Assembly (NCBI GenBank): GCA_001889965.1
Contig: MOEI01000006.1
Location: 17,494-81,493, forward strand
Origin: a bacterium CG10_46_32
Lineage (GTDB): Bacteria; Patescibacteriota; Patescibacteriia; UBA2169
Length of the DNA stretch: 64,000 nt
Direction of reading: 5' to 3'
Positions 8,007 through 46,848 of the stretch are shown here, piece by piece (within the stretch, counting starts at the first letter, position 1; every line of letters starts with the position of its first letter). Below the pieces are notes generated by a model that saw only the letters and a program-made list of their open reading frames with translations, had not been told where the DNA came from and ran no database searches. Position numbers and translations under genes: made by a program.

Positions 8007-8014
8007 TTTTTTGT

Positions 8015-8145: not shown

Positions 8146-8156
8146 AACGAAAACAT

Positions 8157-10099: not shown

Positions 10100-10102
10100 T
10101 GT

Positions 10103-10915: not shown

Positions 10916-10928
10916 TACAAATAAAATT

Positions 10929-12194: not shown

Positions 12195-12195
12195 T

Positions 12196-17709: not shown

Positions 17710-20362
17710 ACATTTGGTATGGCGCAGGGCGTTTTGGGTGGCGCTTTTTGTAGTGATGGTCGCGGTGAATGCCGTGCTGGTGCTTGCGTATATGAGTAAC
17801 AATCGCAATCAACTGATTTACAGCCCCATAGCCAAAGCCGGATTGCCATTCTATCGTTCGGCGCGGGAAGTGATTAATGCAGCCATCGACAGCACCTATG
17901 TGTTTGCCATGCGCAGGGACGTAGGGATTCCGCAGTACCGTTTAGAGATTGCAACCGATGATTTGCGCAAACTCAACAATGCACTCCCCAGCTCGCTTGA
18001 TAACGAGGTGATTGCAGGTAGCATCCTTTTTGACGAGGCTTTAAAAGATACAGTTAAAGGGGTATTGCATTATGGAGACAAAGCCTATGATGTAAAAGTG
18101 CGTTACCGTGGATTAAATCCAAACCATTGGACTCGCCCAAAAAAATCCTGGCAGATTAAATTTAACAAAGACACGCCGTTCCAAGGAATCCGCACGCTTA
18201 AACTTATTATTCCGGTTGACCGCGGGTACTTTGCCGAGGCTCTCAACAACTACCGCGCCAAAAAATTAGGCTTATCCTACCCTGCCGCGGAGTTTGTCCA
18301 GCTGTATGTAAATAATAATTACCAGGGCGTATATTTTAGCGTGGAAGATTTTTCCGCTGCGTTTTTGGAGCGCAGCCAACTTCCGCCGGACGCGAATATC
18401 TACGCGACCGACGAGCCGCTTAGTACGGACCAAGAGGACGCAATAGCGTATGACAGTGTTTCGTTCTGGAACAAGCAGACGAGTGACACACTGTTTAATT
18501 TTGATAATTTTTCAGAATTGGATTTTTTATTGAGCCGCATGCAGCAAGATAATTTTGCAGATGTTGCGCCGGATATTATTGACATGGACAATTTTTATAG
18601 CTGGAACATAGTGGCGCTTTTGGCAGGGAGTAACCATCAGAGCGACTGGGGAAACATGCGTCTGTATTTTAATAATGTAAAAGGAAAATTTGAATTTATC
18701 CCTTGGGACGTGGGGCTCAAAAATACCATGCCGGATCAATTAGCCAATGAGCTCACAGAGAAACTCCTTTCCAATCCCACATTCTACCAGGAACGAAATC
18801 GCCGGTTATGGGAATATGTAAGCAACGAAAAAAATTTGCAGGATGATGTAACGTACTATGACGGATTATACAACCAGCTTAAAGGCGCTTTTTATAGTGA
18901 TTTTAAAAAGCATGAGAACAATCACACGTTTAACGGGCGCGTTGTAGAAATCCGAAACCAGTATGCGGGATTGTTTGGTACGCTCAAAGGATTGTTTGGA
19001 GAAGATATTATTAATCTGACAGTGCGGCATGATGCATCTAAAAAAATACTCGCGCTTTCGTTTGAGGTGGATAGTTTTGCGGGAGTGACTCTTGCGGGCA
19101 TAACCCTTCCCCAAGGATCGCAACTGGTTTCCAATACGGGCCAATACCTGTTTCGACCGAATGAAGATGTTGCAATAACATATTCCGGTGTCCCCATTGG
19201 CGATATTTCCAGTATTATATTCAATCTTATACATGCAGTGACTGGCGAGCCGGTTGGTATCGGTTCTATCCGGTTTATCGACAACTCTACCTTTGCCAAG
19301 TTTGACGATGTGCGCGCCTCTGCGGAATCATTTGTCGCTGCGCATGCGCAGTTTAGGCTGGAGAATAATGAGATTATACTACCTTCTGGAATACATGTTT
19401 TTTTGGAGGACATAGTAGCTCCCAAAGATGTTTTAGTCAGCATCCAACCTGGCACAACCATTTATTTTGCTCCTGGAGTTTCGTTTGTTTCGTATAGTCC
19501 GATTGAGGCGCTGGGAACAGCGGGTAGGCCCATTGTGCTCCGCCGACTTAATCCAAATGAGCCATGGGGAAGTTTCGCAATATTGAACGCTGGGTCAAAT
19601 AAGAGCACAATTGAGTACTTGGATGCTGATGGTGGAGGAAGTGACTACATCAACGGATCGTTTATAAGCGGCATGGTATCTGTATATTATTCGGATATCG
19701 AAGCGCGCAATCTCACCATTTCTCGGTCAGCAAGCGACGATGGCATGAATCTTAAATATTCAAAAGTTTTGGTTATGCAGAGCACCTTTAATAATAATTC
19801 CGCAGACGGATTAGACGGAGATTATATTTCCGGTACTATTGATGGAAGTGTATTTTTAGATAATGGTAATGATGGTATTGATTTAAGCGGCTCACGCATC
19901 ATGATAAGCAATAATCGCCTTGCTGGTTCCGGCGACAAATGCGTCAGCATCGGCGAAGGCACGAATAACACAGTTATTTTTAATACCATACTGGATGGTT
20001 GCCATATTGGCGTGCAGGCAAAGGATGGATCCTATCCGGCAGTCATCAATTCCATTATCATCAATAATGATATCGGTATTGATACATACCGCAAGAAAGA
20101 GTTGTATATAACCGGCGGGCATATAGTAGTGAGCAATTCCATTATTCGCGGCAATGCAGAGGCTGTGCACCAGGATGAATTTTCGGATATTGCGGTTTCT
20201 TTTTCCAATATTCAAGGCGCATATTCCGGCGAAGGAAATTTTGATGAAGATAAAAATTATTTTTTGGTTCAAGATATTGGCAAGGGAGACACACATACAG
20301 TTATCCAGTATGCGGGTATTAATGTAGAGCAGGCGCCGGTTGGTTTGTTTGAAGCATTTTAA
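17687..20362 (+). CDS. CotH-kinase-family protein with N-terminal TM anchor and C-terminal right-handed beta-helix (pectin-lyase-like) repeats
   Basis: CotH core VKVRYRGLNPNHWTRPKKSWQIKFNK...LKLI...LYVNNNYQGVYFSVEDFSAAFLER. C-terminal repeated N/G/D/I-rich beta-helix turns (NNRLAGSGDKCVSIGEGTNNTVIFNTILDGCHIGV...). Confidence 0.7.
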   Translation: MNVFKTIKHLVWRRAFWVALFVVMVAVNAVLVLAYMSNNRNQLIYSPIAKAGLPFYRSAREVINAAIDSTYVFAMRRDVGIPQYRLEIATDDLRKLNNALPSSLDNEVIAGSILFDEALKDTVKGVLHYGDKAYDVKVRYRGLNPNHWTRPKKSWQIKFNKDTPFQGIRTLKLIIPVDRGYFAEALNNYRAKKLGLSYPAAEFVQLYVNNNYQGVYFSVEDFSAAFLERSQLPPDANIYATDEPLSTDQEDAIAYDSVSFWNKQTSDTLFNFDNFSELDFLLSRMQQDNFADVAPDIIDMDNFYSWNIVALLAGSNHQSDWGNMRLYFNNVKGKFEFIPWDVGLKNTMPDQLANELTEKLLSNPTFYQERNRRLWEYVSNEKNLQDDVTYYDGLYNQLKGAFYSDFKKHENNHTFNGRVVEIRNQYAGLFGTLKGLFGEDIINLTVRHDASKKILALSFEVDSFAGVTLAGITLPQGSQLVSNTGQYLFRPNEDVAITYSGVPIGDISSIIFNLIHAVTGEPVGIGSIRFIDNSTFAKFDDVRASAESFVAAHAQFRLENNEIILPSGIHVFLEDIVAPKDVLVSIQPGTTIYFAPGVSFVSYSPIEALGTAGRPIVLRRLNPNEPWGSFAILNAGSNKSTIEYLDADGGGSDYINGSFISGMVSVYYSDIEARNLTISRSASDDGMNLKYSKVLVMQSTFNNNSADGLDGDYISGTIDGSVFLDNGNDGIDLSGSRIMISNNRLAGSGDKCVSIGEGTNNTVIFNTILDGCHIGVQAKDGSYPAVINSIIINNDIGIDTYRKKELYITGGHIVVSNSIIRGNAEAVHQDEFSDIAVSFSNIQGAYSGEGNFDEDKNYFLVQDIGKGDTHTVIQYAGINVEQAPVGLFEAF

Positions 20363-20371
20363 ATAGAAGAC

Positions 20372-21175
20372 ATGCAAGAGACTAAATTACATTTTCAGCG
20401 TTTCGAATTCAAATACCTTTTGAGTTTTCAGGAATGTGCGGAAATAAGAAAACGAATCAGCAGGTATGTTGCTTTGGATGGGTTTGCCAAGGATTCAGCT
20501 CAGGGGTTTTACAAGGTGGTCAGCCTGTATTACGACAGCCCTACCTTTTATTACTACCACCAAAAAATCGATGGCACCCGCAACCGCAAAAAGTTTAGAC
20601 TACGCACCTATTGCGTGGATGGCTCATTTGCAAAGCCGATATTTTTTGAGATTAAACGCAAATTTGATTCAGTAATCCTTAAAGATCGGTTTTTATTGGA
20701 TATGCCTCTCTATGAAGACTTTATTAAGGACGGCAGATTTGCGGGCATGGAATCTCGAGGAGGCAACAGCACGCATGTTGCGGAAGAATACGAGGAAACG
20801 GCGGCTCGGCGCAGTTTGGGGCCCAAAGTGCTTATTACATACCGTAGGGAGCCGTATCTTGGGGCATTTAATAAAAATTTTCGCATTACTTTTGATTATG
20901 ATATTAAAGCGTGCGAAGGCACGAGCTTATTCGAGAAAAAATGCGATACACCAGTGCTTGCGGATGGAGTAATTATGGAGATTAAATTTAACGGCAGGCT
21001 TCCGCATTACATTAAAGAAATTATTGATGGATATAATCTAGAGCGGGTTGCGTATTCAAAATACTGCCACGCAGTGGAAGCATGCTATGCGCTGCCGTAC
21101 ATTGCCGCGCCGCGCAATTATTTTTTCAACATTGATCAACCATTATTAATGCAACCATATGAACGAATTATTTAA
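20372..21175 (+). CDS. VTC-domain (CYTH-like, polyphosphate-polymerase-like) protein
   Basis: LHFQRFEFKYLL...VVSLYYDSP...RNRKKFRLRTY matches the bacterial VTC domain pattern. Confidence 0.65.
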   Translation: MQETKLHFQRFEFKYLLSFQECAEIRKRISRYVALDGFAKDSAQGFYKVVSLYYDSPTFYYYHQKIDGTRNRKKFRLRTYCVDGSFAKPIFFEIKRKFDSVILKDRFLLDMPLYEDFIKDGRFAGMESRGGNSTHVAEEYEETAARRSLGPKVLITYRREPYLGAFNKNFRITFDYDIKACEGTSLFEKKCDTPVLADGVIMEIKFNGRLPHYIKEIIDGYNLERVAYSKYCHAVEACYALPYIAAPRNYFFNIDQPLLMQPYERII

Positions 21176-21839
21176 CGCAACAACCGGAGGAAATTTTACG
21201 CTTTTGAATATCCTCGTAAATCTTGGTCTTACCTTGGTGTTATCCCTGTTTATTGCCTGGATGTACAAAAAGACGCACCGTGGACTCTCGTATTCCCAGA
21301 GTTTTATATTCACGCTGATTTTGATCAGCATGATTACTACCATTGCCATGATGGTGATCGGAAACAGCCTTGCGGTCGCGTTTGGACTTTTGGGCGCGTT
21401 TTCCATTATCCGATTCCGGACGCCAGTCAAGGACACAAAGGATACAGGATACATTTTTTTCAGCCTAGTGGAAGGCATGGCCGTAGGAACAAATAATCAT
21501 TTAATCGCTTTTGTTTCAACACTTGTCGTTTTGGTTGTTATATGGGCGCTGTATAAGAGCAATTTCGGCGCGTTGCACAAGAACGAGTTTTTGCTCATCT
21601 TTAGCGTTGATTACCAAAAACGGGAGAATGATTCATTTGCAGGTATCTTCGAAAAATATCTCAAGAACAGCATGCTCTTGAACATCAACGCAAAAGAGCA
21701 TACGCATAAATCCGAAATGGTATATAGTGTTTCATTCATCGATGAATCCGAAAGCAATGCGCTTATCCAAGGATTAATGGCTGTTGATGGGGTTTCGGAG
21801 GCGCGGGTTATTAGTTCCAAAGCAGACATTGAATACTAG
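21159..21839 (+). CDS. DUF4956-family integral membrane protein
   Basis: GNSLAVAFGLLGAFSIIRFRTPVKDTKDTGYIFFSLVEGMAVG matches the DUF4956 signature. Three to four TM helices. Confidence 0.6.
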   Translation: MNELFNATTGGNFTLLNILVNLGLTLVLSLFIAWMYKKTHRGLSYSQSFIFTLILISMITTIAMMVIGNSLAVAFGLLGAFSIIRFRTPVKDTKDTGYIFFSLVEGMAVGTNNHLIAFVSTLVVLVVIWALYKSNFGALHKNEFLLIFSVDYQKRENDSFAGIFEKYLKNSMLLNINAKEHTHKSEMVYSVSFIDESESNALIQGLMAVDGVSEARVISSKADIEY

Positions 21840-25169: not shown

Positions 25170-26165
25170 ATGAACACCATGAACACACTCAAAGACAAAA
25201 CCATTTTAATTACCGGCGGCACAGGTTCGTTTGGTAAGAATTTTATACGATTTTTACTGGACCAATCGGAAGTAAAAAAAATTATTGTATTCAGCCGTGA
25301 CGAACTTAAACAGTCGGAAATGCAGCGCGAGATTCAAGATGTCCGATTACGTTTTTTTCTGGGGGATGTTCGTGATTTGGAGCGACTTAGGCGCGCGTTT
25401 TTTGAAGTTGATGTTGTGGTCCATGCCGCTGCGCTCAAACAGGTGCCTACGCTTGAGTATAATCCGTTTGAGGCGGTAAAAACCAACATCATGGGAACCC
25501 AGAACGTTATTGACGCGGCCATTGATTTGGGGGTTGAAAAAGTGGTATTGATTTCAACCGATAAAGCCGCGCAACCCATTAATTTATATGGTTCCACTAA
25601 GCAGTGCGCGGAAAAATTGTTCGTGGCCGGCAATTCGTACGCTGCCGGGCGTACGCGTTTTAGCTGTGTGCGATATGGAAATGTCATTGGAAGTCGAGGC
25701 AGTATTATTGAGATGTTGTTGCGGGAGAAAGATGCGCGCGAGGTGACAGTTACCGACGAGGGCATGACTAGGTTTTGGCTTTCTTTGGACGAAAGTTTCA
25801 AGTTGGTATGTTTCGCGCTTGAGCATATGGTTGGTGGAGAAATTTTTATACCGAAGGATATTCCCAGCATGCGCATGGGTGACGTATTTGCCGCGCTTGC
25901 TCCGAATGCTAAAAAGAAAATTATCGGCATCCGACCCGGAGAAAAGATGCACGAGGTACTATTGACCGAAGAAGAAGCACGCCGCGCTGTGGTGTTGGGA
26001 AAGTATTTTGTTGTGTTGCCCGAATATCATCACGCAGTCAGCATGGAGAAGTTTGAGCCATACAGGGCACAAGGGGAAACATTGCCCGATGGTTTTTCTT
26101 TTCGGAGCGATACAAATACTTTGCAAATGAGCAAGGAAGACCTGTGCGCCGTGGCGCAAAAATAA
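25170..26165 (+). CDS. pseB: UDP-N-acetylglucosamine 4,6-dehydratase (PseB/FlaA1-type short-chain enzyme)
   Basis: ILITGGTGSFGKNF Rossmann motif, YGSTK catalytic motif and about 331 aa. It sits next to a PseC-like transaminase. Confidence 0.75.
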   Translation: MNTMNTLKDKTILITGGTGSFGKNFIRFLLDQSEVKKIIVFSRDELKQSEMQREIQDVRLRFFLGDVRDLERLRRAFFEVDVVVHAAALKQVPTLEYNPFEAVKTNIMGTQNVIDAAIDLGVEKVVLISTDKAAQPINLYGSTKQCAEKLFVAGNSYAAGRTRFSCVRYGNVIGSRGSIIEMLLREKDAREVTVTDEGMTRFWLSLDESFKLVCFALEHMVGGEIFIPKDIPSMRMGDVFAALAPNAKKKIIGIRPGEKMHEVLLTEEEARRAVVLGKYFVVLPEYHHAVSMEKFEPYRAQGETLPDGFSFRSDTNTLQMSKEDLCAVAQK

Positions 26166-26168
26166 TTT

Positions 26169-27278
26169 ATGATACCCTACGCACGACAACATATTAGTCA
26201 GGACGACATTGCGGCGGTTGCTTCCGCACTTCGTTCGGATTGGCTCACCCAAGGTCCTCAAGTTGCTGTGTTTGAAAAGGCTTTGGCTTTGTACTGCGGT
26301 GTCAAGTACGTGGTTGCTGTTTCTAACGGGACGGCCGCGTTGCATATAGCATACCTTGCGGCCGGCATTGTCAGCGGAGATGAGGCTATCACAACTCCAA
26401 ACACGTTTGTCGCAACTACTAATATGCTTTTGGCTGTGGGTGTTAAGCCCGTGTTTTCAGATATCCGTCTAGATACGTATAACCTGAACCAGGAGGAAAT
26501 TGAAAAGCATATTACTAAAAAGACCAAAGTAATCGTGCCGGTGCATTTTGCCGGGCAGTCGTGTGACATGTCCGCCATTAGGTCAATTGCCAAAAAGCAC
26601 AAGCTCTTGGTCATCGAAGATGCCTGCCATGCACTAGGTGGGCAATATAGGCAGAAAAAAATCGGCAGTTGCGCGTATTCGGATATGGCGGTGTTTAGCT
26701 TCCATGCTATTAAATCAATTACCACGGCGGAAGGTGGCGCAGTGCTTACAAATAATAAAAAGTTTTATGAAAAAATGCTGCGCGTGCGGAGCCATGGAAT
26801 CCATAAAGACAAGAGCGGATTTAATGTGATGTCTGAGTTTGGGTACAACTACCGGCTGACAGAGTTACAGGCGGCCCTAGGCTTGTCGCAACTTAAGCAG
26901 TTAAATCGTTTTATTGCGGCTCGACGCAAGGTTGCACGAGCATACCAGGTCGCGCTTGAAGGCATTCCAGGAATCATAGCGCCCACGGAGCTGGATCAGA
27001 ACACTTCTGCATGGCACCTGTACGTTATCCGAACCAAGAAAGCATCCGACCGATTGCCGCTGTATCGGCATTTGCAACAATCCGGGATTGGCATCAATTT
27101 TCATTATCCGGCAGTGTACAGCCATCCCTACTATAAAAAATTGGGTTTTAAAGGGCGTCAGTGTCCTCATATGGAGTTGTACGGCAAGACAGCAATTACT
27201 TTGCCGATGCATGTTTCTGTTTCCGAGCGCGATATTAAAACTATTGCTCAAGCTATCAAATTGTATTTTAACGTATGA
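26169..27278 (+). CDS. pseC: DegT/DnrJ/EryC1/StrS-family PLP aminotransferase (PseC-like)
   Basis: N-terminal pattern typical of sugar aminotransferases and the SFHAIKSITTAEGG Lys motif. Confidence 0.75.
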   Translation: MIPYARQHISQDDIAAVASALRSDWLTQGPQVAVFEKALALYCGVKYVVAVSNGTAALHIAYLAAGIVSGDEAITTPNTFVATTNMLLAVGVKPVFSDIRLDTYNLNQEEIEKHITKKTKVIVPVHFAGQSCDMSAIRSIAKKHKLLVIEDACHALGGQYRQKKIGSCAYSDMAVFSFHAIKSITTAEGGAVLTNNKKFYEKMLRVRSHGIHKDKSGFNVMSEFGYNYRLTELQAALGLSQLKQLNRFIAARRKVARAYQVALEGIPGIIAPTELDQNTSAWHLYVIRTKKASDRLPLYRHLQQSGIGINFHYPAVYSHPYYKKLGFKGRQCPHMELYGKTAITLPMHVSVSERDIKTIAQAIKLYFNV

Positions 27279-28393
27279 GAGTGTGTAAAAAATGCATTCA
27301 GCCGGACACCAGGCCAGGCATACGGTTCGATGAAAAAGGTGTTTGTCCGCCCTGTCGTTTTTCTGAAGTGCACGAAAAAATTAATTGGAAAAAACGACGC
27401 ACAGAACTTGAAAAACTTGCGGATTTTGGCAGGAGCCAGAATGTCTCGGGTTATGATTGTATTGTATCGGTCAGTGGAGGAAAAGACAGCATGCGGCAGG
27501 CTCTGTATATACGTGATGAATTAAGAATGAAGCCGTTGCTAGTATCATGCGCCTATCCTCCTGAGCATGTAACTGAACGGGGCGTGTATAATCTTGCGAA
27601 CCTTATTGAGATTGGTTTTGACTGCATTACCGCGACTCCAAATCCGCAGGCGTGGAAACAAATGGTAAAGGCTGGATTTTATCAGCATGGCAACCTTTTA
27701 AAATCATGTGAAATGGCTCTGTATATTACCGCGCCGAAAGTTGCCATTGCGTATCATATTCCTTTGATTTGTTTGGGCGAGAACCCCGCAATCACTATCG
27801 GCGCTTTAGAGGTTGGTTCCGTAACCGGAGACGCTAACCGCATGAAGCGTTCCAATACTTTGGCGGGCGGCCCGGAATCCGTCAAAACAAAAGACATTAC
27901 TGAACGCGATTTGTATTGGTACCACTACCCTAGTGACGACGAAATGTCCTGGGCGGGCATGAAGATTTTTTATCTTGGATATTATGTTAAGGATTTTAAT
28001 AAATTTAAAAATGCCTCTTTTTCAATCAAGCATGGGCTGGAAGTGCGTAAGGACACGCCGGCGAATACGGGCAACTATTATAATTTTGAATCCCTTGATA
28101 ATGACTTTTCTTTAATCAACCAGATGCTTAAATATTTCAAATATGGGTTTGGCCGAATTACGGATCAACTTTCCGAAGCAATTCGGCTTGGTATGATGAC
28201 CCGAGATCGAGCCATTGTAATCGCAAAAAGATACGATGGTGCATGTTCGGATGTATATATTAAACGTTTCTGCAAGTACATAGGCATTACTCAGAAAGAA
28301 TTTTGGCGGGTCGCTGATTTGTATCGGAATCGCGAGATTTGGGAAAAAGACAAAAAAGGCGCCTGGCATATTAAGCCCGCATATCAGTTATGA
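27275..28393 (+). CDS. N-acetyl sugar amidotransferase (WbpG/PseA-like PP-loop ATP pyrophosphatase)
   Basis: CxxC zinc ribbon (CKKC...CPPC) and the PP-loop SVSGGKDS. HisH/HisF homologues lie downstream. Confidence 0.7.
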   Translation: MRVCKKCIQPDTRPGIRFDEKGVCPPCRFSEVHEKINWKKRRTELEKLADFGRSQNVSGYDCIVSVSGGKDSMRQALYIRDELRMKPLLVSCAYPPEHVTERGVYNLANLIEIGFDCITATPNPQAWKQMVKAGFYQHGNLLKSCEMALYITAPKVAIAYHIPLICLGENPAITIGALEVGSVTGDANRMKRSNTLAGGPESVKTKDITERDLYWYHYPSDDEMSWAGMKIFYLGYYVKDFNKFKNASFSIKHGLEVRKDTPANTGNYYNFESLDNDFSLINQMLKYFKYGFGRITDQLSEAIRLGMMTRDRAIVIAKRYDGACSDVYIKRFCKYIGITQKEFWRVADLYRNREIWEKDKKGAWHIKPAYQL

Positions 28394-29013
28394 AGAATAC
28401 AATTGTTATAATTGATTACGGAGTCGGCAATGTTCGTTCTGTAAAAAATGCACTTTCGTCTTTGGGGTATACTACTGTAATTTCGCAAGAAAAACGGGAT
28501 ATACAGGGGGCGGCATGTGTAGTGTTGCCGGGAGTCGGGGCATTTGCAGAAGGAATGAAAAATTTAAAAGCGTTGGGCCTTTTGCCTATTTTACATGATG
28601 CGGCTATAAAAAATAAAAAGCCTTTTTTGGGGATTTGCCTGGGCATGCAGCTTTTGGCTGAATCGTCGGAAGAGGGTGGGGTGCATGCCGGCCTCGGATA
28701 TATTCCCGGGCACGTGGTTCGGTTTCCAGAAAAGAAAACGCCTCGAATTCCGCATGTAGGCTGGAATACGGTTTCCGTATCAAAAACATACCCCTTGTTT
28801 GGAGATTTTGAAGCAGGAGCGCATTATTATTTTGATCACAGTTTTTATTTTAACGCGCCTAAAAAACATGTCTTGGCAACGTGCGAGTACGGAATCCAAT
28901 TTCCCGCCGCGGTTGGATTTGGCAATATTTACGGCGTGCAGTTCCATCCAGAGAAAAGTCAAGCAAACGGATTAAAGCTGTTTAGAAGTTTTTTTAAGAG
29001 CCACAACCTTTAA
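28390..29013 (+). CDS. hisH: Imidazole glycerol phosphate synthase HisH-like glutamine amidotransferase subunit
   Basis: IDYGVGNVRSV, GVGAF, GICLGMQ and the His/Glu triad region. Confidence 0.8.
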   Translation: MKNTIVIIDYGVGNVRSVKNALSSLGYTTVISQEKRDIQGAACVVLPGVGAFAEGMKNLKALGLLPILHDAAIKNKKPFLGICLGMQLLAESSEEGGVHAGLGYIPGHVVRFPEKKTPRIPHVGWNTVSVSKTYPLFGDFEAGAHYYFDHSFYFNAPKKHVLATCEYGIQFPAAVGFGNIYGVQFHPEKSQANGLKLFRSFFKSHNL

Positions 29014-29017
29014 CCAT

Positions 29018-29887
29018 ATGCTTAAGAAAAGGATAATCGCATGCATGACCGTAAAAGACAACATAGTTGTCCAGAGTATTGGTTTTAAGCAATACTTGCC
29101 GGTTGGAAGACTTGCGGTAGCAATTGAATTCTTAAGCCAGTGGGGAATTGACGAAATTGCGATTCTGGATATTTCTGCCACGGCTGAAAAACGCGGTCCA
29201 AATTTCAAACTAATTGCCCAGGCCGCGAAAAAGTGTTTCACGCCTTTGGCCGTGGGTGGCGGCATTAGGGATATTGCTGACATGAGAAAATTGAACCAAT
29301 TAGGCGCGGAAAAAATTATTATAAATAATTTGGCTTTGAGTCAGGGCGAAATTATTAAAAAAGCTGCAGAGATTTTTGGCAGCCAATTTATAGTGGTTTC
29401 CATTGACGCAAAAAAAGTCGGCGGAACATATGAAGTATTTTCTGATGGCGGGCAAAAGCCAATCGGGCTGGAGGTTGGGGTTTTTGCTAGAAAAGTTGAA
29501 CAACTAGGCGCGGGCGAGATATTTTTGAATTCTATTGATCAAGATGGATCAAAAAAAGGCTTTGACTTGAGGCTCATTGATGCAGTTGTTTCCAAGGTTA
29601 CTGTTCCGGTTATAGCGTGTGGAGGCGCGGGCGAGCCTGATCATTTTAGGGAGGCGATCATCAAAACAAAAGCGTCCGCAATTGCGGCTGGAAACTTTTT
29701 TCATTTTACCGAACACAGCCCCATTGTGCTGAAATCGTTTTTAAAAAGTACGCGCGTTCCCGTGCGTCTCGAAACATATGCGCAGTACAATGACGCAACA
29801 TTCGACAGAAGCGGCCGGCTTCAGAAGCGGCCGGAGCAGTATTTGAATACGTTACGATTTACTTATTTGCCAGAGGAGATTATATGA
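29018..29887 (+). CDS. hisF: Imidazole glycerol phosphate synthase HisF-like cyclase subunit (WbuZ-type)
   Basis: RIIACMTV...GIDEIAILDISA...PLAVGGGIRD (TIM-barrel HisF motifs). Confidence 0.75.
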   Translation: MLKKRIIACMTVKDNIVVQSIGFKQYLPVGRLAVAIEFLSQWGIDEIAILDISATAEKRGPNFKLIAQAAKKCFTPLAVGGGIRDIADMRKLNQLGAEKIIINNLALSQGEIIKKAAEIFGSQFIVVSIDAKKVGGTYEVFSDGGQKPIGLEVGVFARKVEQLGAGEIFLNSIDQDGSKKGFDLRLIDAVVSKVTVPVIACGGAGEPDHFREAIIKTKASAIAAGNFFHFTEHSPIVLKSFLKSTRVPVRLETYAQYNDATFDRSGRLQKRPEQYLNTLRFTYLPEEII

Positions 29888-31140
29888 GATATTGTACTCG
29901 ATGTTTATATCCAGAAAATCATCCGCTCAATATTACATTTGACGAGCATGGCGTGTGCAGTGGCTGCCACGTGCACGAAGAAAAAGATAAGCTCAACTGG
30001 AAGCAGCGGTCAAAAAAACTGGGTGATATTTTGTACAGTTATACTACAAAATCAGGCAAAAGCTACGATTGCATTATTCCAGTTTCAGGTGCGCGCGATT
30101 CTTATTTTATTGTTCATACCATTAAGAATGTATATAAAAAAAATCCATTGCTTGTCACCTATAATAAACAATACAACACTGCTCTGGGTATCAGGAATTT
30201 GGCCTATTTAAAAACGCTTTTTGGGTGCGACATGCTCACGCTCACCGTAAACCCTGATGCTGTGAAAAAAATCACCAGGCGCACGCTACAAAAAATGGGC
30301 AGCATGTACTGGCATTGCCTGGCCGGCACTACGGCGTATCCTGTGCAGACTGCAGTTCGGTTTAAAATTCCCCTTATTATATGGGGAGCGCATCAGGGGT
30401 GCGATCAGGTTGGCATGTTTTCGCATATGGATGAGGTGGAAATGACGCACAAGTACCGTAAAGACCATGATCTTATGGGATATGAGGCTGAAGATTTGAT
30501 TGGCGGCGGCGTCACCAAAGAAGATGTGCGGCCGTTTGTGTACCCTTCGGATAAAGAAATCGAAAAGGTCGGAGTGCGCGGCATCTATCTTTCCAACTAT
30601 ATCCGCTGGGATTCTAAAAAACAGCACGAAGACATGATAGCGCAGTACGGTTACGAAACAGCCTACCAAGAGAGAACGTTTGATACATATAATGACGTGG
30701 ATTGCTTTAACTATTCCAGTGTGCATGATTATATTAAATTTTTAAAGCACGGTTATGGAAAAGTTACTGATCATGCATCCAGGGAAATCCGTCTCAAGCG
30801 TCTTACGCGCGAGCAGGGGATTGATTTGGTCAAAAAGTATCAGAACCTGAAGCCAAGTAAAAAATCGTTATCCTTGTTTCTGAAATGGGTTGGTATGAAT
30901 AAAAAAGATTTTTATAAATCCATTGACGCATTTCGTTCTTCTGTGGTCTGGGAAAAGTCGGGAATGGCCTGGAAACTCAAGGATTCTATAGTGTGCCATG
31001 CTGGCGACGAAGGTGTTGATTCTGTCCGTCTGAGAAAGAAAGGTCGTTGTGAATTTAAATTGACCAAGCCCAAGAAAACATTAAAAGATGATACATATAC
31101 CCTGCTCGGCCGCGGCTGGGCAGATGATTGGAAACAGTAA
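29884..31140 (+). CDS. Second N-acetyl sugar amidotransferase (WbpG/PseA-like), paralog of 27275-28393
   Basis: CTRC...CSGC zinc ribbon and the PP-loop IIPVSGARDS. Same domain order as the upstream paralog. Confidence 0.65.
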   Translation: MRYCTRCLYPENHPLNITFDEHGVCSGCHVHEEKDKLNWKQRSKKLGDILYSYTTKSGKSYDCIIPVSGARDSYFIVHTIKNVYKKNPLLVTYNKQYNTALGIRNLAYLKTLFGCDMLTLTVNPDAVKKITRRTLQKMGSMYWHCLAGTTAYPVQTAVRFKIPLIIWGAHQGCDQVGMFSHMDEVEMTHKYRKDHDLMGYEAEDLIGGGVTKEDVRPFVYPSDKEIEKVGVRGIYLSNYIRWDSKKQHEDMIAQYGYETAYQERTFDTYNDVDCFNYSSVHDYIKFLKHGYGKVTDHASREIRLKRLTREQGIDLVKKYQNLKPSKKSLSLFLKWVGMNKKDFYKSIDAFRSSVVWEKSGMAWKLKDSIVCHAGDEGVDSVRLRKKGRCEFKLTKPKKTLKDDTYTLLGRGWADDWKQ

Positions 31141-31141
31141 T

Positions 31142-32053
31142 ATGAAAAAGATTCGCACAGCAATAATTGGATTAGGAAACATCGCTCATGGATATGACGA
31201 TATCGCGAGCGTAAAAAAACGGTTAACGTATCCGACACACGTAAGTGTGCTTAAGCAGGACAAGCGGTTTGTGCTTGTTGCGGCAAGCGATGCAAGCGCG
31301 CGCCAGAGAGATATTTTTAAGAAAAAAGTTTCCAAAGAAGTGGTGCTCTATGCTGATTATCGTGCCATGCTTAATAAAGAAAAGATCGATTTGATGGTTG
31401 TTGCAGTGCCGACTGATTTACACCTAAAAGTGTGTTCAGTGGCTCTTGCTGCAGGCATTAAGTATATACTTTGCGAAAAGCCTATGGTGAGCACTGTGGC
31501 TGAAGCTAAAAAGTTATTAGCACTCGTAAAGCGCTATGCTGGGCATATTATGGTTAACTATCAGCGATCATACAGTGCGGATACTCAAAAGTTTATGAGC
31601 GTTGTGGAGAAAAAAAAGCGCGGTCGGCTTGTGTTTGCAACGGTACAGTACTCGGGTGGAATTTTTAACACTGCCACGCACATGATTCATTTAGTGGAAA
31701 AAATGTTTGGCCCTATTCAAAAGATTTGTAGCATTGCTGCTTCTGTTTGCGAACAGCGGGATCCGAATATCAGTTTTACGGCATTTGGCCGCGGGTTTGA
31801 AATAGTATTTAAAGGAATTAATAATTCTGTCGGGCAAATTTTTGAAATTGATATGCAGTTTACCAAAAAGAACATTACGCTGCACGGAGATTTTTTTGCT
31901 CAGACCAGTATGCGGGATGTATACGAGAGTGCATATCAATTTATTACGCGGCGCAAAAAACCGGTTGCGGATATGTTTTCGTCTGTCCATGCGCTCGCGG
32001 TTGCCGAAAAAGCGCTTGCATCCGCAAAGAACGGTAAAACAATAATCATATGA
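31142..32053 (+). CDS. Gfo/Idh/MocA-family NAD(P)-dependent oxidoreductase
   Basis: N-terminal Rossmann IRTAIIGLGNIAHGY and the EKP motif (CEKPMVSTVAEA). I chose the ATG at 31142. Confidence 0.75.
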   Translation: MKKIRTAIIGLGNIAHGYDDIASVKKRLTYPTHVSVLKQDKRFVLVAASDASARQRDIFKKKVSKEVVLYADYRAMLNKEKIDLMVVAVPTDLHLKVCSVALAAGIKYILCEKPMVSTVAEAKKLLALVKRYAGHIMVNYQRSYSADTQKFMSVVEKKKRGRLVFATVQYSGGIFNTATHMIHLVEKMFGPIQKICSIAASVCEQRDPNISFTAFGRGFEIVFKGINNSVGQIFEIDMQFTKKNITLHGDFFAQTSMRDVYESAYQFITRRKKPVADMFSSVHALAVAEKALASAKNGKTIII

Positions 32054-33351
32054 CCACAATGCCTATGCTCGCAATAAAAGGAGGTGCTCCAGTGAGAACC
32101 AAGCTGTTCCCCGGCTATAATACCATTGGCCAAGAAGAAAAAGACGCAGTAAACCGCGTGTTAGATTCAGGTGTGCTTTCGCGCTATGTGGGTGCTGCTG
32201 GCCCGGATTTTAACGGCGGCACAGAAGTCCAGGCACTGGAAAAGGAATGGGCTGCGCATTTTGGGGTCAAGTATGCTATTGCGGTTAATTCTTGCACTAC
32301 GGGCCTCCAGGCGGCTGTGGGTGCATGCGGCATTGAGCCGGGGGACGAAGTGATTGTCTCACCCTACACCATGTCTGCTTCCGCGGTCGCACCGCTGTGG
32401 TATGGGGCGGTGCCCGTATTTGCGGATATTGAGGATGAGTATTTTTGCCTGGATCCGAAATCAGTGGCATCTAAAATCACCGAACGCACTAAGGCCATTA
32501 TTGTGGTTGATTTATTTGGGCAGTCCTATGACCGCGATGCAATAAATGCCATTGCTAAAAAGCATAATGTGCTCGTTATAGAGGATTGCGCGCAAGCGCC
32601 TGGGGCGGCATATAAAGATCAATACGCGGGCACGCTCGGCGATGTTGGCGTGTTTTCACTCAACTATCATAAGCATATCCATGCAGGCGAAGGCGGTATA
32701 GTGGTTACCAATAACGATGCTATTGCGGAGCGAGTGCGATTAATCCGCAACCATGCAGAATCAGTTGTTGCGGGCAAGGGGATTACCGATATTGCTAATA
32801 TGGTGGGCAGTAATTTTCGACTTACGGAGATTCAGGCAGCTATTGCGCGGGTTCAGTTATTATCGTTGCAAAAACTCACAGAGGAGCGCATCCGCAATGC
32901 GGGGTATCTTGCCGAAACATTGGGCGCTCTTCCTGGAATTCGTGCTGCATCGGTTCGCACAGGTGCCACGCATGTCTACTATACCCAGGCATTTTTGTAT
33001 GATGAAGATAAGGTTGGTGTTCCTCGCGACGCATTTATAGCTGCAGTGAAAGCAGAGCTTCCTGCGTGCGAGCTTCGGGAGCACGAGGGAGCTCTTATCA
33101 GTACTGGGTATGTAAAGCCTTTGTATATGTTGCCCTTATTTCAAAAAAAGATCGCTATTGGAAAGGCTGGGTATCCATTTAGTGGTTCGGAGAATTATCA
33201 AAAGGGCCTATGTCCGATTGCTGAGCGCATGCACGAAAAAGAATTAATCATTCACGAATTGATGCGGCCTGGCATGCACAAGGGAGATATGGATGATGTG
33301 GTTGCGGCATTTAAGAAAGTGTATGACCACCGAAAGGAGCTGGAGTCATGA
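32050..33351 (+). CDS. DegT/DnrJ/EryC1-family PLP-dependent sugar aminotransferase
   Basis: 433 aa. The fold pattern and the NYHKHIHAGEGG Lys region are typical of the family. Confidence 0.7.
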   Translation: MTTMPMLAIKGGAPVRTKLFPGYNTIGQEEKDAVNRVLDSGVLSRYVGAAGPDFNGGTEVQALEKEWAAHFGVKYAIAVNSCTTGLQAAVGACGIEPGDEVIVSPYTMSASAVAPLWYGAVPVFADIEDEYFCLDPKSVASKITERTKAIIVVDLFGQSYDRDAINAIAKKHNVLVIEDCAQAPGAAYKDQYAGTLGDVGVFSLNYHKHIHAGEGGIVVTNNDAIAERVRLIRNHAESVVAGKGITDIANMVGSNFRLTEIQAAIARVQLLSLQKLTEERIRNAGYLAETLGALPGIRAASVRTGATHVYYTQAFLYDEDKVGVPRDAFIAAVKAELPACELREHEGALISTGYVKPLYMLPLFQKKIAIGKAGYPFSGSENYQKGLCPIAERMHEKELIIHELMRPGMHKGDMDDVVAAFKKVYDHRKELES

Positions 33352-34265
33352 AAAAGTTACTAGTAATATGCCATGATGCCGGCGGGTCGGAGATTGTATC
33401 AGCTTTTATTAAAAAGAATATTTCGCGGTACCATGTTACGTGTTTTGTCGCAGGCCCTGGCGTAAAGATTTTTAAAGGTAAAGGACTTGGCAGGCATCTG
33501 GTGAGTAAGCAAAAAGCATGGATGGCGCTGCGTTCGACGGATATGGTGCTCACTGGCACCAGCTGGGGGTCAGACATTGAGCTTGAGTTTATTTGCGAAG
33601 CAAAAAAACATGGCATTAAAACGGCAAGCTACTTAGACCATTGGGTTAATTATCGAGAACGGTTTGGGTATCCTTCCAAGCAATGGCAACGTAATCTTCC
33701 GGATGAAATATGGACTGGAGATACCTATGCCTCCCGATTGGCTAAAATATTTTTCCCAAAAACACTGCATCGGTTCGTCATAAACCAATATTTTCAAGAA
33801 GTAAAGCGAGCATACAAGCACGGCGTGCGCCGCCAAAAACAGGGAGCGCACATACTGTTTTTAAGCCAGCCTATGTCTTTGGCAAATACAGCACTTAAGA
33901 AACAGCGTTCCGCGTTTGATGAGTATAGTGTTTTAGAAGAGTTATTTCGCGTATTAGAAGGATGCCGCATTCAAAGTAGTGTTATTATTCGGTACCACCC
34001 ATCGGAAAAGCAAGACAAATATAAAACATTGCTTACCCGTTACGGCAGTGTGCTCCAATTTAAAAAACAAAATAAGAGTTTGATGCAAGATTTTCGTGAA
34101 GCGCGCGTCGTGGTTGGTATGACAACTATGGGATTAGTGCTTGCTGTGTTGTGCGGAAAGCAGGCAATCAGTTTTATGCCCCATACTAAAGCACTGTGCC
34201 CAATTCCATTTAAAGAAATTTTAAAGATTCATAGCAGTAAAAAACTACATAACGCACTATGTTAA
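33348..34265 (+). CDS. GT-B-like hypothetical protein; candidate PseG-type UDP-sugar hydrolase / surface carbohydrate biosynthesis protein
   Basis: Two Rossmann-like halves. Its position between the aminotransferase and NeuA/NeuB in a Pse-like gene order fits. No firm motif. Confidence 0.3.
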   Translation: MKKLLVICHDAGGSEIVSAFIKKNISRYHVTCFVAGPGVKIFKGKGLGRHLVSKQKAWMALRSTDMVLTGTSWGSDIELEFICEAKKHGIKTASYLDHWVNYRERFGYPSKQWQRNLPDEIWTGDTYASRLAKIFFPKTLHRFVINQYFQEVKRAYKHGVRRQKQGAHILFLSQPMSLANTALKKQRSAFDEYSVLEELFRVLEGCRIQSSVIIRYHPSEKQDKYKTLLTRYGSVLQFKKQNKSLMQDFREARVVVGMTTMGLVLAVLCGKQAISFMPHTKALCPIPFKEILKIHSSKKLHNALC

Positions 34266-34954
34266 AAACTGGAGAACAGGTATTGGCTATTATTATCGCA
34301 CGCGGAGGCTCTAAATCCATTCCGCGGAAGAACGTGTTGTCATTGCATGGCAAGCCGCTGGTTGCGTGGCCTATTGATTTAGCAACATCGGTTGATCGTG
34401 TTGATCGTATTGTCGTTTCTACAGATGATGATGAAATTATGGATATTGCCAAGCAATATGGTGCAGAGGTTCCATTTAAGCGTCCTGCAAAACTCGCACA
34501 AGATGAAACAGAAACATTGCCGGTAGTGCAGCATTGCTTGAGTTATTTTTTTGAAAAAGAGCACTATAGGCCAGGCATTGTACTCCTTTTATATCCAACG
34601 GCTCCGTTTCTTAAAAAAGCGCGCATAGAGAAGGCTTTAGACTTATTTGAACAGAAGCAGTGTAATAGTGTCATGAGTATCGTTGAGGATTGGGGAAGGT
34701 TTTGGAGGCTAGATGAATTCTCTGGACGGTATGTTCCACTACATCCAGAGAAACGGGTTAATAGGCAGTATTATACACCCCTTTACCGTGAAGATGGCGC
34801 AGTGTATTTTAATCGATATGATGTTATTATGAAGAAAGGTGCTATTATCGATGAGGCGAATGTTGAGTTTTTGGTAATGGAAGAAGGAGAAAATATTGAT
34901 ATTGATGAGCCTCAAGATTTTAAGCAAGCTGAGCGTAAAAAAATTTCCTCATAG
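34259..34954 (+). CDS. Acylneuraminate (nonulosonate) cytidylyltransferase (NeuA/PseF/LegF family)
   Basis: IIIARGGSKSIPRKN motif of CMP-NeuAc synthetases. Length is 231 aa. Confidence 0.8.
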   Translation: MLKTGEQVLAIIIARGGSKSIPRKNVLSLHGKPLVAWPIDLATSVDRVDRIVVSTDDDEIMDIAKQYGAEVPFKRPAKLAQDETETLPVVQHCLSYFFEKEHYRPGIVLLLYPTAPFLKKARIEKALDLFEQKQCNSVMSIVEDWGRFWRLDEFSGRYVPLHPEKRVNRQYYTPLYREDGAVYFNRYDVIMKKGAIIDEANVEFLVMEEGENIDIDEPQDFKQAERKKISS

Positions 34955-34955
34955 T

Positions 34956-36014
34956 ATGAAATATATTACCATTAGAACTCCAAAAGCAGTGCGAAAAATC
35001 GGTCCACACGAACCTGTATTTATTATTGCTGAGCTTTCTGGAAATCATAACCAATCTTACGCCAAGGCTGAAAAATTAATTGATGCAGCGGCCAAGGCGG
35101 GTGTTGATGCCATAAAATTACAAACATACACAGCAGATACGTTAACTATTGATTCGGATAAAAAATATTTTTGCATCACTTCTGGTAAATGGAAAGGGCA
35201 GACGCTTTATCAGTTATATCAAAAGGCATACACCCCATGGGAGTGGCAGCCAAGACTCAAAAAGTATGCAGAAAAAAAGGGTTTGGTTTTATTCTCGACT
35301 CCTTTTGATGTGAGTGCAGTTGATTTTTTGGAAAAAATGCGCGTGTCACTTTATAAAGTTTCGTCGTTTGAGATTGGGGATATTCCATTGCTTAAAAGAA
35401 TCGGAACAACAAAAAAACCTGTTATTATTTCTCGTGGTATGGCTTCGGTTTCAGAAATTACGCTTGCTGTTAAAGCGCTTAAGGCGAGCGGCGCACCTCA
35501 GGTGGCGGTGCTGCACTGCATAAGTTCGTACCCAGCAGAACCAGAAGAAATGAACCTTGCAACCATTCCGGATATTACAAAAAAATTCAATGTTATTTCG
35601 GGGCTTTCAGATCATACGATTGGAACGAGCAGCGCGATTGCAGGTGTTGCTTTAGGTGCATCAATTATCGAAAAGCATATTACTCTCAAGCGGTCTGATG
35701 GAGGTCCTGATGCAGCATTTTCTCTTGAACCTCAAGAGTACACAGAATTAGTTGCCGCAATTCGGGATACGGAAAAAGCCATAGGATTACCATCGTACCA
35801 AATCGGAAAAAAAGAATCTCAAAATTTCGCATTTAGAAAATCAATATTTGTAATTAAAGATATCCCAAAAGGTTCTTTGTTTACTAAAGAAAATATAAAA
35901 ATAATTCGCCCGGGCCAGGGATTGCCTCCAAAGTATTGGGAGCGTATTTTAGGAAAGCAATCCAAGAGGAGTATAAATCGAGGCACTCCGCTTAATAGGC
36001 GCGATGTGGGATAG
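34956..36014 (+). CDS. N-acetylneuraminate synthase family (NeuB/PseI/LegI)
   Basis: PVFIIAELSGNHNQS...AGVDAIKLQTY...LSDHT motifs and a C-terminal SAF domain. ATG at 34956. Confidence 0.85.
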   Translation: MKYITIRTPKAVRKIGPHEPVFIIAELSGNHNQSYAKAEKLIDAAAKAGVDAIKLQTYTADTLTIDSDKKYFCITSGKWKGQTLYQLYQKAYTPWEWQPRLKKYAEKKGLVLFSTPFDVSAVDFLEKMRVSLYKVSSFEIGDIPLLKRIGTTKKPVIISRGMASVSEITLAVKALKASGAPQVAVLHCISSYPAEPEEMNLATIPDITKKFNVISGLSDHTIGTSSAIAGVALGASIIEKHITLKRSDGGPDAAFSLEPQEYTELVAAIRDTEKAIGLPSYQIGKKESQNFAFRKSIFVIKDIPKGSLFTKENIKIIRPGQGLPPKYWERILGKQSKRSINRGTPLNRRDVG

Positions 36015-36487
36015 TGCGCATGCAATATACTCAGCAACACAGTACCATTCGTCCTATAATGCCAGAAGACGCTAAGCGTGTATGGGAAATTCGCAATCAC
36101 CCATCTGCTCGCTCGCATTCGGGAAATCCGGAGGCTATTTCTTATCAGCAGCATGCATCTTGGTTTGCAAATAAGTATTTTAGCGGCCTGGACAATACAG
36201 CGTTTGTGCTCGTCGTTGATGCGGGGCAGGTTGTTGGATATTGTCGGTTTGATTGCAATAAAGAACAGGGCGGTTATATTGTTTCTATTGCTATCGATTC
36301 TGATTTTCAGGGCAAAGGCTTTGGGCATGCATTATTGCGTGGCGCGTTGGATCAATATGCGCAGGGAAAAGTGATTTTTGCAGAAATTCAGAAAGATAAC
36401 ATTGCTTCTGTTCATTTGTTTAAAAAAAATGGATTTTCTATAGAAAGTGAAGATGAAAAAAAATATTATCTTTTGTTGAGAATGTAG
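36014..36487 (+). CDS. GNAT N-acetyltransferase, PseH-like
   Basis: VWEIRNHPSARSHS (PseH-like) and the GNAT motif A QGKGFGHALL. Length is 157 aa. Confidence 0.6.
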   Translation: MRMQYTQQHSTIRPIMPEDAKRVWEIRNHPSARSHSGNPEAISYQQHASWFANKYFSGLDNTAFVLVVDAGQVVGYCRFDCNKEQGGYIVSIAIDSDFQGKGFGHALLRGALDQYAQGKVIFAEIQKDNIASVHLFKKNGFSIESEDEKKYYLLLRM

Positions 36488-36488
36488 T

Positions 36489-37901
36489 ATGTCTAAAGCG
36501 CAAAAAACAATCTTCATCGTCGTGACCCGCGGGTTTATTATCCGAAACATTCTGCGGTCTGGCACTCTTGCATTGCTTAAAAAAGCTGGTTGGCGCGTGG
36601 TGATATTTTTTGATGTCGCAGAAGTTCCTGCGCACTTGCGCCGTGAGTTTGAGGACGAGCAGGTGAGTGTGCACGGGATGCGCGTATCTGTTGCCCGGCC
36701 GCACCGATTATTTTTACGGCTGAGAAAGTATCTTCTCTCAACAAGCTCAACCAAGATTTTGGTGGATTTCCGACAAGGGAGCAAGGATAGACAAAAGTTC
36801 CGCGAAGGATTTTTACCTAAAAAATCTTCGCTTGCAAGCCAGACGCAAAAGCTAAGCATGTCTGTATTGAGCACCATCCCTTTACTTAAGCCTATATACC
36901 GATGGATTGAATATCATATGTTTTCCGAAAAAAATCCCGTGATCCAGCGTTATTTTGACGAATACCAGCCGAACGAAGTGTTTGGCACTTCGGTTGTTTC
37001 TTCTTTGGATATTGCCTTTATGAAAGAGGCTCGCCGCAGAAACATAGTTACCATCGCGATGCCAAAAACCTGGGATAATATTATGAACGGTTATTTCCGT
37101 TTTACCCCGGATTATTTTTTGGTGCATAACGAAATGGCACGTGGCTTAACAGCGCAGTATCAGCATATGCCAAAAGAAAAGATGTTTGTGGTTGGTATGC
37201 CGCAGTTTGACTGGTACCGCAAGGAGGGCGTTCTTAATTCGCGTGCGGAACATTGGAAGAGCAAGGGTCTAGATCCGAATCAAGCGGTCATCTTTTTTGG
37301 TTCAGCGGGTATTTGGGCGGCGCATGACCACGCTATTCCGGAATTAATTTACGGATGGATAGAGCACGGTGAGCTCGCAAAACCGTGCCAGTTATTTTTG
37401 CGTCCGCATTTTAGTAATGTACATGATGACATGTTTAAAAATCTTCGAGGCAAAAAAGGGATTGCTATTGATGATTATAAGATGGTGAATACGTTTAGTG
37501 ATAATTGGGATCCTACAGTTCAGGATACGATTGATTTTACTAATTCCGTTGTATATTGTGATATTATGATAAATATCGGTTCAACGCTTTCTCTGGACGC
37601 ATCCTGCGTTGATCGGCCCATATTAAATCCCGCATTCGGGTGCTCGTTTCAAGGGGGGGAAGATGTGACCTATCCGTACCAGTATGGGGCGGACCACTAT
37701 CAGTGGGTGCTTTCTGAGAACGCAACTAAGCTCTCTTTTAACCCAAAAGAGCTTAAGCAGCAACTGAATGAATATCTTGTGCATCCGGAAGAAGAACAAG
37801 AAGAACGAAAAAATCTTATTAACAAGCTTTGTTATCGCGTAGACGGGCTTGCATCACAGAGGATTGTTGATGCCATTAACAGCAGTGTACGTACTGCGTA
37901 A
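36489..37901 (+). CDS. GT-B-fold transferase with HP-like motif (TagF/CDP-glycerol glycerophosphotransferase-like or sialyl/CMP-sugar transferase-like); paralog of 47997-49400
   Basis: CQLFLRPHFSNVHDD and VGMPQFDWY are shared with the paralog. Length is 470 aa. Confidence 0.4.
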   Translation: MSKAQKTIFIVVTRGFIIRNILRSGTLALLKKAGWRVVIFFDVAEVPAHLRREFEDEQVSVHGMRVSVARPHRLFLRLRKYLLSTSSTKILVDFRQGSKDRQKFREGFLPKKSSLASQTQKLSMSVLSTIPLLKPIYRWIEYHMFSEKNPVIQRYFDEYQPNEVFGTSVVSSLDIAFMKEARRRNIVTIAMPKTWDNIMNGYFRFTPDYFLVHNEMARGLTAQYQHMPKEKMFVVGMPQFDWYRKEGVLNSRAEHWKSKGLDPNQAVIFFGSAGIWAAHDHAIPELIYGWIEHGELAKPCQLFLRPHFSNVHDDMFKNLRGKKGIAIDDYKMVNTFSDNWDPTVQDTIDFTNSVVYCDIMINIGSTLSLDASCVDRPILNPAFGCSFQGGEDVTYPYQYGADHYQWVLSENATKLSFNPKELKQQLNEYLVHPEEEQEERKNLINKLCYRVDGLASQRIVDAINSSVRTA

Positions 37902-39620: not shown

Positions 39621-39624
39621 TACT

Positions 39625-40782: not shown

Positions 40783-40793
40783 TTACTACGCAT

Positions 40794-43150: not shown

Positions 43151-43151
43151 T

Positions 43152-46835: not shown

Positions 46836-46848
46836 TACGACATTGATT

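Follow-up and report, generated by a model that had tools for sequence, protein, structure and literature searches.

We analysed a window of 64,000 nucleotides from contig MOEI01000006.1 of the Patescibacteriota bacterium CG10_46_32, and within it four adjacent + strand genes at 27275-31140. These encode, in order, an N-acetyl sugar amidotransferase (NASAT) that we call XA, a HisH-type glutaminase, a HisF-like barrel protein and a second NASAT, XB (Table 1). A preliminary description of the sequence had placed two such amidotransferases around a HisH/HisF pair at these positions, and the open reading frames (ORFs) and model matches agree, all four ORFs being present. The XA-HisH-HisF-XB block lies directly downstream of PseB and PseC, within a single tightly packed + strand operon that runs from PseB through a BFO_1060-like putative transferase (25170-37901). 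The ORFs of PseC and XA, XA and HisH, and HisF and XB overlap by 4 bases each, and HisH and HisF are separated by a gap of 4 bases. The same description had proposed a WbuX/WbuY/WbuZ-type acetamidino module in an amino-sugar locus. This view held, with PseB and PseC upstream and both NASATs above the WbuX cutoff, the locus being one for pseudaminic acid (Pse). We regard the cassette as a self-contained four-gene amidination module inside a Pse-type operon. Acetamidino modules with HisH/HisF were known; what is new here is a conserved cassette that joins two NASAT subfamilies.

The matches of XA and XB to the TIGR03573 WbuX model cover positions 1-343 of 344. Aligned with each other, the two proteins shared 28.8% identity over 375 residues (E 7e-51), and their profiles were collinear across about 350 columns. 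A four-cysteine ribbon, CxxC...CxxC, was found in both (C4, C7, C24 and C27 in XA; C4, C7, C25 and C28 in XB) and was conserved at 99% or more in 59 XA and 82 XB orthologues. The XA motifs, an SGGKDS PP-loop and GEN, were 100% conserved in the 59 orthologues. In XB the PP-loop is SGARDS across the clade (A 89%, R 96%), which differs from the PP-loop consensus SGGxDS, and GEN is replaced by GAHQGxDQ. XB also carries a C-terminal extension of about 45 residues and, specific to its clade, many invariant His, Asp and Glu positions. In the XB orthologue of an uncultured Campylobacterales (locus L012, 12571-13833), the loop reads DGGKDS instead of SGARDS, and the first loop Ser is thus not invariant. 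Both proteins had been described as having a CxxC ribbon and an SGGKDS-type loop; the ribbon stood for the two of them and the loop for XA, the SGARDS form of XB being conserved in its clade. A loss of PP-loop motifs on alignment had been named as a possible objection, but the PP-loop and Zn-ribbon motifs survive. Since both clades have kept the Cys4 ribbon and the PP-loop, neither NASAT looks like a decayed copy.

For the motif comparison and the tree we included the Legionella pneumophila NASAT structure 8WEX (LpNASAT) and four single-copy NASATs, three of them from plasmids of Rhizobium, Azospirillum and Alistipes and one an extra copy at locus L020. SGGKDS and GEN were common to XA and all of these, with one-residue variants in Azospirillum (SGGKDG) and in the L020 copy (GES). 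In a neighbour-joining tree, XA and XB formed separate clades with the single-copy NASATs in between. Judged by these sequences, XA and XB are old paralogues belonging to two deeply separated subfamilies rather than products of a recent duplication, and the earlier wording of "duplicated" amidotransferases does not fit them. The AlphaFold2 models had predicted local distance difference test (pLDDT) values of 89.5 for XA and 80.3 for XB, the tail of XB (394-418, its last 25 residues) staying below 50. With Foldseek, the top match was 8WEX in both cases (XA, E 3e-25, template modelling (TM) score 0.82; XB, E 2e-24, TM 0.72-0.79), and 8WEX was the best structural match for the two proteins, at TM 0.72-0.84. 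Its Zn(Cys)4 ribbon and Rossmann-like PP-loop fold recur in both, although identity between the cassette NASATs and 8WEX is only about 27%, and LpNASAT has a 15-residue insertion absent from other family members. XA resembles 8WEX at SGGKDS and GEN, whereas XB differs from it by SGARDS and GAHQGxDQ. Conservation within the cassette is highest for XB: against the window proteins, median identity was 65% for XB, 51% for HisH, 49% for XA and 48% for HisF.

In its two folds and its glutaminase triad, the HisH/HisF pair matches the imidazole glycerol phosphate synthase HisH/HisF. The triad (Cys83, His186, Glu188) was conserved in 62/62 cassette HisH proteins. In contrast, the position of the cyclase Asp11 was occupied by Thr in the window and by V, I, T or L in the others, with Asp in 0/66 cassette HisF-like proteins, and the genes lie in a glycan operon and not in a his operon. 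The other positions compared were largely kept (R5 in 65/66, E167 in 66/66 and the second catalytic Asp of the cyclase, D130, in 65/66), all of these positions being read against a manually entered Thermotoga maritima HisF reference that aligned without offset. We take R5 and E167 to be ammonia gate residues of HisF. On these residues, and in line with the preliminary description, HisH and HisF are best classed as dedicated copies and not as the histidine enzyme. The HisF-like protein scored below the curated cutoffs of WbuZ (TIGR03572, 261.1 < 299.7), HisF (TIGR00735, 243.4 < 294.55) and AglZ/HisF2 (NF038364, 233.2 < 310). It also bears a conserved C-terminal tail of about 36 residues, an addition relative to WbuZ, and behaves as a separate subfamily, apart from WbuZ and AglZ/HisF2. 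In Pseudomonas aeruginosa, a physical interaction between HisF2 and WbpG was detected by co-immunoprecipitation and interpreted as favouring ammonia delivery (PMC11445079).

The two-NASAT arrangement, at first considered unusual, turned out to be the rule. In a genome scan with XA, 7/7 loci had the XA-HisH-HisF-XB order; they represent seven lineages: Planctomycetia, Spirulina, a Woesearchaeota archaeon, two Alphaproteobacteria, Prochlorococcus and Campylobacterales. A metagenome scan with an XB-clade profile gave 80 loci, and order was scored in the 51 that had at least 3 kb upstream of XB. The exact order was found in 50 of these 51, the exception having a synthase gene inserted before XB. 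XB without XA was never seen in the sampled loci. The window and 57 further loci share a glycan-locus arrangement in which a HisF-like barrel is encoded beside a NASAT and a HisH homologue; the sequence itself also occurred on several groundwater metagenome contigs. Among cultured bacteria, Pedobacter heparinus has the cassette in the same order, confirmed by sequence, and Desulfovibrio aminophilus has an XA orthologue followed by a GATase, a His_biosynth protein and a 441-residue ORF without Pfam match that we took as XB. Many bacterial and archaeal phyla have inherited XA-HisH-HisF-XB as one fixed cassette, which has spread by gene transfer over at least ten phyla. No XB-clade gene was found in Escherichia coli genomes, plasmids or the viral contigs of IMG/VR, and the cassette DNA had no match in E. 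coli genomes. The plasmid collection yielded single-copy NASATs only, all below 33% identity. When the Campylobacterales XB was used in a protein search, no Campylobacter jejuni protein was among the best 120 matches.

Several loci carried variations around the cassette. On a 779-kb groundwater contig (L020, ~1-2600 and 7266-11251), we observed the cassette and a second HisH-HisF pair, followed by the canonical NASAT with SGGKDS and GES mentioned above, that is, three amidotransferases within one glycan locus. In P. heparinus (L096, 992-11254), a formyltransferase gene lies upstream of PseI. In D. aminophilus (L098, 7943-13875), S-adenosylmethionine-dependent methyltransferase genes flank the cassette on both sides; by analogy with PtmH, they may give N-methylated amidines. 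In another locus (L024, 10001-12634), an 877-residue ORF joins XB in frame with a BFO_1060-like transferase, a fusion that hints either at a functional tie of XB to a glycosyl transfer step or at an assembly error. We had considered fusion proteins as evidence for complexes, but most over-long ORFs were artefacts of upstream ORF extension, and the L024 fusion was the only one real in the assembly.

We then asked which sugar genes accompany the cassette, counting neighbours within 10 kb by tblastn annotation in 40 long loci, each of at least 15 kb. A nonulosonate synthase was found in 34/40. A stricter recount gave exactly one synthase in 31 loci, two or more in 3 and none in 6, and a NeuC-like gene in 1. 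A Gfo oxidoreductase was present in 28/40 and a second DegT-family aminotransferase, DegT2, in 29/40, that is, in about 70%. At the simplest end, locus L068 has PseB, PseC, PseF, a PseH-like GNAT protein and PseI (514 bits), directly followed by the cassette; with tblastn and NCBIfam annotation, no other amino-sugar pathway was recognised there within 10 kb. Three further loci (L080, L051 and L092) resembled it, as judged by tblastn alone. Gfo and DegT2 are lacking in these L068-type loci. The cassette is therefore usually found beside a single Pse-type nonulosonate pathway, and some loci have nothing but canonical Pse genes and the cassette. A Pse-type sugar carries two N-acyl groups, N5 and N7. 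The preliminary description had left a choice between two positions and two sugars; the single-pathway context and the loci with canonical Pse genes favour two modifications of one sugar, at N5 and N7, over two sugars.

Known systems indicate that one NASAT is enough for one amidine. In the flagellar glycosylation of C. jejuni, PseA converts CMP-Pse5Ac7Ac into CMP-Pse5Ac7Am, and PtmG (Cj1324) converts CMP-Leg5Ac7Ac into CMP-Leg5Am7Ac, Leg being legionaminic acid (PMC13317340, PMC3766260). The C. jejuni island is like the cassette in having two NASAT paralogues together with HisH/HisF homologues, Cj1315c/Cj1314c. It presumably has a single HisH/HisF pair, and we take its NASAT genes to be non-adjacent and to serve two different sugars. 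In the cassette, by contrast, the NASATs sit on either side of HisH/HisF in a constant order and are inherited together. In O-antigen clusters, one NASAT stands with one HisH/HisF-like pair: WbpG/HisH2/HisF2 of P. aeruginosa O5, where WbpG forms the 3-acetamidino group of ManNAc3NAmA, and WbuX/WbuY/WbuZ of E. coli O145, where WbuX gives FucNAm (PMC10607449). Such systems rely on one NASAT and act at the hexose level, whereas the window has two NASAT subfamilies in a nonulosonate operon. Archaea have such an acetamidino-type trio as well: in Methanococcus maripaludis, AglX/AglY/AglZ, made up of a single NASAT, a HisH-like and a HisF-like protein, form an acetamidino group on a glycan sugar. Our literature searches on wbuX/Y/Z and aglX/Y/Z returned nothing useful on the cassette.

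In the mechanism that we propose, HisH would hydrolyse glutamine to release ammonia. The HisF-like barrel, devoid of Asp11, would make no imidazole glycerol phosphate and would instead conduct ammonia to a docked PP-loop amidotransferase. With ATP, each NASAT would adenylate an N-acyl group of the activated sugar at its carbonyl oxygen, and ammonia would then displace AMP, yielding the amidine. XA as the canonical enzyme and XB as a specialised, highly constrained one would work in the same pathway, on the two N-acyl groups of one 5,7-diamino nonulosonate or, in a variant, on two successive intermediates. Since a single NASAT makes one amidine and the cassette keeps two intact, co-inherited NASATs, two amidination events in one pathway are, we infer, the simplest outcome. 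We put this forward tentatively, as a reading that could well be right but that we would not yet bet on. Several points weigh against it. No product is known from any cassette-bearing organism, and our literature search found no mention of a di-acetamidino nonulosonate. XB is off the family consensus at two active-site motifs (SGARDS, and GAH for GEN), with an orthologue bearing DGGKDS, and its chemistry could therefore differ. The single HisF barrel has one exit, which two NASATs would need to share or to use in alternation. The Gfo and DegT enzymes common in the long loci could create a third amino group or serve a second sugar. Lastly, a second nonulosonate set, of legionaminic/neuraminic acid-like (Leg/Neu-like) type, lies in the window, making two target sugars possible in this organism.

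Three other explanations were considered. XA and XB might form an obligate heteromeric amidotransferase that makes a single amidine, one subunit being catalytic and the other serving substrate binding or docking to the HisF-like protein. In favour of such a complex are the strict co-occurrence and gene order, the 4-base overlaps of XA with HisH and of HisF with XB, the cassette-specific C-terminal tails on XB and the HisF-like protein, and the non-canonical XB motifs at the PP-loop and the GEN position. Moreover, the Legionella NASAT is a dimer in the crystal and on elution, but its interface residues were reported not to be conserved across the family (PMC10607449). The PP-loop and the Zn ribbon are under strong constraint in both clades, the atypical XB is the most conserved gene, unlike the pattern of a pseudo-enzyme, and one NASAT suffices in Campylobacter, Pseudomonas and Legionella; we thus consider a heteromer unlikely. 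A more radical possibility is that XB is not an acetamidine synthase at all, and that it uses the NASAT fold for another adenylation-dependent step on the product or the substrate of XA, such as N5-N7 ring closure or transfer to another nucleophile. XB alone replaces GEN and alters the PP-loop, it has many invariant His, Asp and Glu residues of its own, and it never occurred without XA in our sample. However, its WbuX score exceeds that of XA, its fold is the same, its gene directly follows the ammonia-channel gene with a 4-base overlap, and we obtained no positive evidence for another reaction, all of which makes this explanation very improbable.

Alternatively, XA and XB could amidinate two different sugars while sharing one ammonia supply. 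The Pse-type nonulosonate would be one target; the other would be a nonulosonate of Leg type, FucNAc (the WbuX case) or a 2,3-diamino hexuronate (the WbpG case). The window would lend itself to this, with its second nonulosonate set at 37849-41792 (cytidylyltransferase, NeuB-like synthase, NeuC-like epimerase and dehydratase) and its two BFO_1060-like transferases, and C. jejuni does have separate NASATs for Pse and Leg. The Gfo oxidoreductase and the DegT aminotransferase encoded after XB point the same way. We presume a resemblance to WbpB/WbpE beside WbpG in P. aeruginosa O5, but DegT2 ranked nearer to 2-deoxy-scyllo-inosose and Kdo8N transaminases than to WbpE in a PDB comparison, and the L068-type loci do without Gfo and DegT2. 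Independent targets should also mean independent assortment, yet XA and XB always occur together, and the long loci mostly have one nonulosonate synthase (31/40) and rarely a NeuC-like gene (1/40). Two separate sugars therefore seem improbable to us.

Our preferred reading, two amidinations within one pathway, would have its most pronounced form in a nonulosonic acid with two amidines, for instance 5,7-di-acetamidino pseudaminic acid, XB being a dedicated second-site or new-chemistry enzyme downstream of XA. We consider this specific product possible but rather doubtful. If it were made, two amidines would turn a normally acidic sugar net cationic, and such a sugar would be displayed by Patescibacteria-type bacteria, DPANN archaea, Prochlorococcus, Bacteroidota and Desulfovibrio. 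Acetamidino groups put positive charge on surface sugars, with effects on autoagglutination, phage binding and host interaction in Campylobacter and Legionella. The presence of such a system, in a fixed two-enzyme form, in abundant marine cyanobacteria and in ultra-small bacteria and archaea points to a common, so far undescribed surface sugar. Its tight conservation, altered nucleotide-loop motifs and constant XA partner make XB a concrete subject for enzymology, and the cassette is a test case for one ammonia channel serving two client enzymes. Its presence in P. heparinus and D. aminophilus brings it into cultured bacteria.

The operon around the cassette is listed in Table 1. Considering the Pse pathway enzymes (PseB, C, H, G, I and F), PseB, PseC and PseI scored above their cutoffs, and the PseF-like and PseH-like proteins below. 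No model match to PseG was found in the operon, and the sole candidate is the 305-residue protein encoded between DegT2 and PseF. This protein had no PDB match and no PseG match, and its family matched the BFO_1060 and TIGR04396 models only: out of ten members, five matched NF046086 (best 4.8e-13) and five TIGR04396 (best 1.1e-10). It may be a stand-in for PseG. The true start of the Gfo oxidoreductase is probably near 31142, gene callers placing it just past the XB stop. This oxidoreductase and DegT2 could together aminate a sugar, either free or CMP-linked.

Table 1. Genes of the pseudaminic acid-type operon that contains the cassette (positions in the window).
Feature	Position	Strand	Basis and remarks
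PseB, UDP-GlcNAc 4,6-dehydratase (inverting), first step of the pseudaminic acid pathway	25170..26165	+	TIGR03589, 439 bits (cutoff 407.75)
PseC aminotransferase	26169..27278	+	TIGR03588, 459.2 bits (cutoff 423.5); stop overlaps XA start
XA, canonical NASAT, 372 aa	27275..28393	+	TIGR03573 WbuX, 312.9 bits (cutoff 203.2)
HisH-type class I glutaminase (WbuY-like), 207 aa	28390..29013	+	TIGR01855, 231.5 bits (cutoff 105.4); ammonia source
HisF-like TIM barrel, 289 aa	29018..29887	+	PF00977, 191 bits; putative ammonia channel and docking subunit
XB, divergent NASAT subfamily, 418 aa	29884..31140	+	TIGR03573 WbuX, 338.4 bits (cutoff 203.2)
Gfo/Idh/MocA oxidoreductase	31088..32053	+	PF01408, 70.6 bits; frequent cassette neighbour
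DegT2, DegT-family aminotransferase	32050..33351	+	PF01041, 286 bits; frequent cassette neighbour
Unnamed protein, 305 aa	33348..34265	+	Family related to BFO_1060 and TIGR04396 surface-carbohydrate proteins
PseF-like CMP-nonulosonate synthetase	34259..34954	+	TIGR03584, 161 bits (below cutoff 205.7)
PseI, pseudaminic acid synthase	34896..36014	+	TIGR03586, 462.7 bits (cutoff 340.25)
GNAT acetyltransferase, PseH candidate	36014..36487	+	TIGR03585 PseH, 39.7 bits (below cutoff); RimI, 55.7 bits
BFO_1060-like putative nonulosonate transferase	36489..37901	+	NF046086, 49.8 bits (below 200-bit cutoff)

Outside the operon, the window consists of a surface-glycan island exceeding 60 kb, with the second, Leg/Neu-like set, sulfation genes, glycosyltransferases and an ABC exporter. 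Two stretches, 37849-41792 and 46795-49400, encode the Leg/Neu-like set, with a cytidylyltransferase, a NeuB-like synthase (382 bits, just below cutoff), two NeuC-type epimerases and a PseB-like dehydratase, as well as the second BFO_1060-like transferase, which shares 31% identity with its counterpart at 36489. Two distinct nonulosonic acids are probably produced by this organism. An apparent second HisF/HisH set at 12166-14730 was rejected, its ORFs of 396, 254 and 207 residues being a GT4 glycosyltransferase, a deacetylase and a methyltransferase.

Amid the glycan island, upstream of the MsbA/HepA-like ABC exporter, 17687-21839 encodes an 891-residue protein with CotH kinase and right-handed beta-helix domains and, after it, VTC-domain and DUF4956 proteins. 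Additional amide or aminoacyl groups on the glycan are suggested by an AsnB-type glutamine-dependent amidotransferase and a DltA-like adenylation enzyme (6150-8006 and 43041-44687). On the + strand, a 930-residue ORF (54503-57295) combines a pyruvate-kinase-like N-terminal domain with sulfate adenylyltransferase and adenosine 5'-phosphosulfate kinase, and it is adjoined by a sulfotransferase and a CysQ-like protein of the inositol-monophosphatase family (53284-54510 and 57549-58391). These sulfation genes suggest that the glycan of the island is sulfated. The ORF at 58354-60252 encodes an acetyl-CoA-synthetase-like AMP-binding enzyme.

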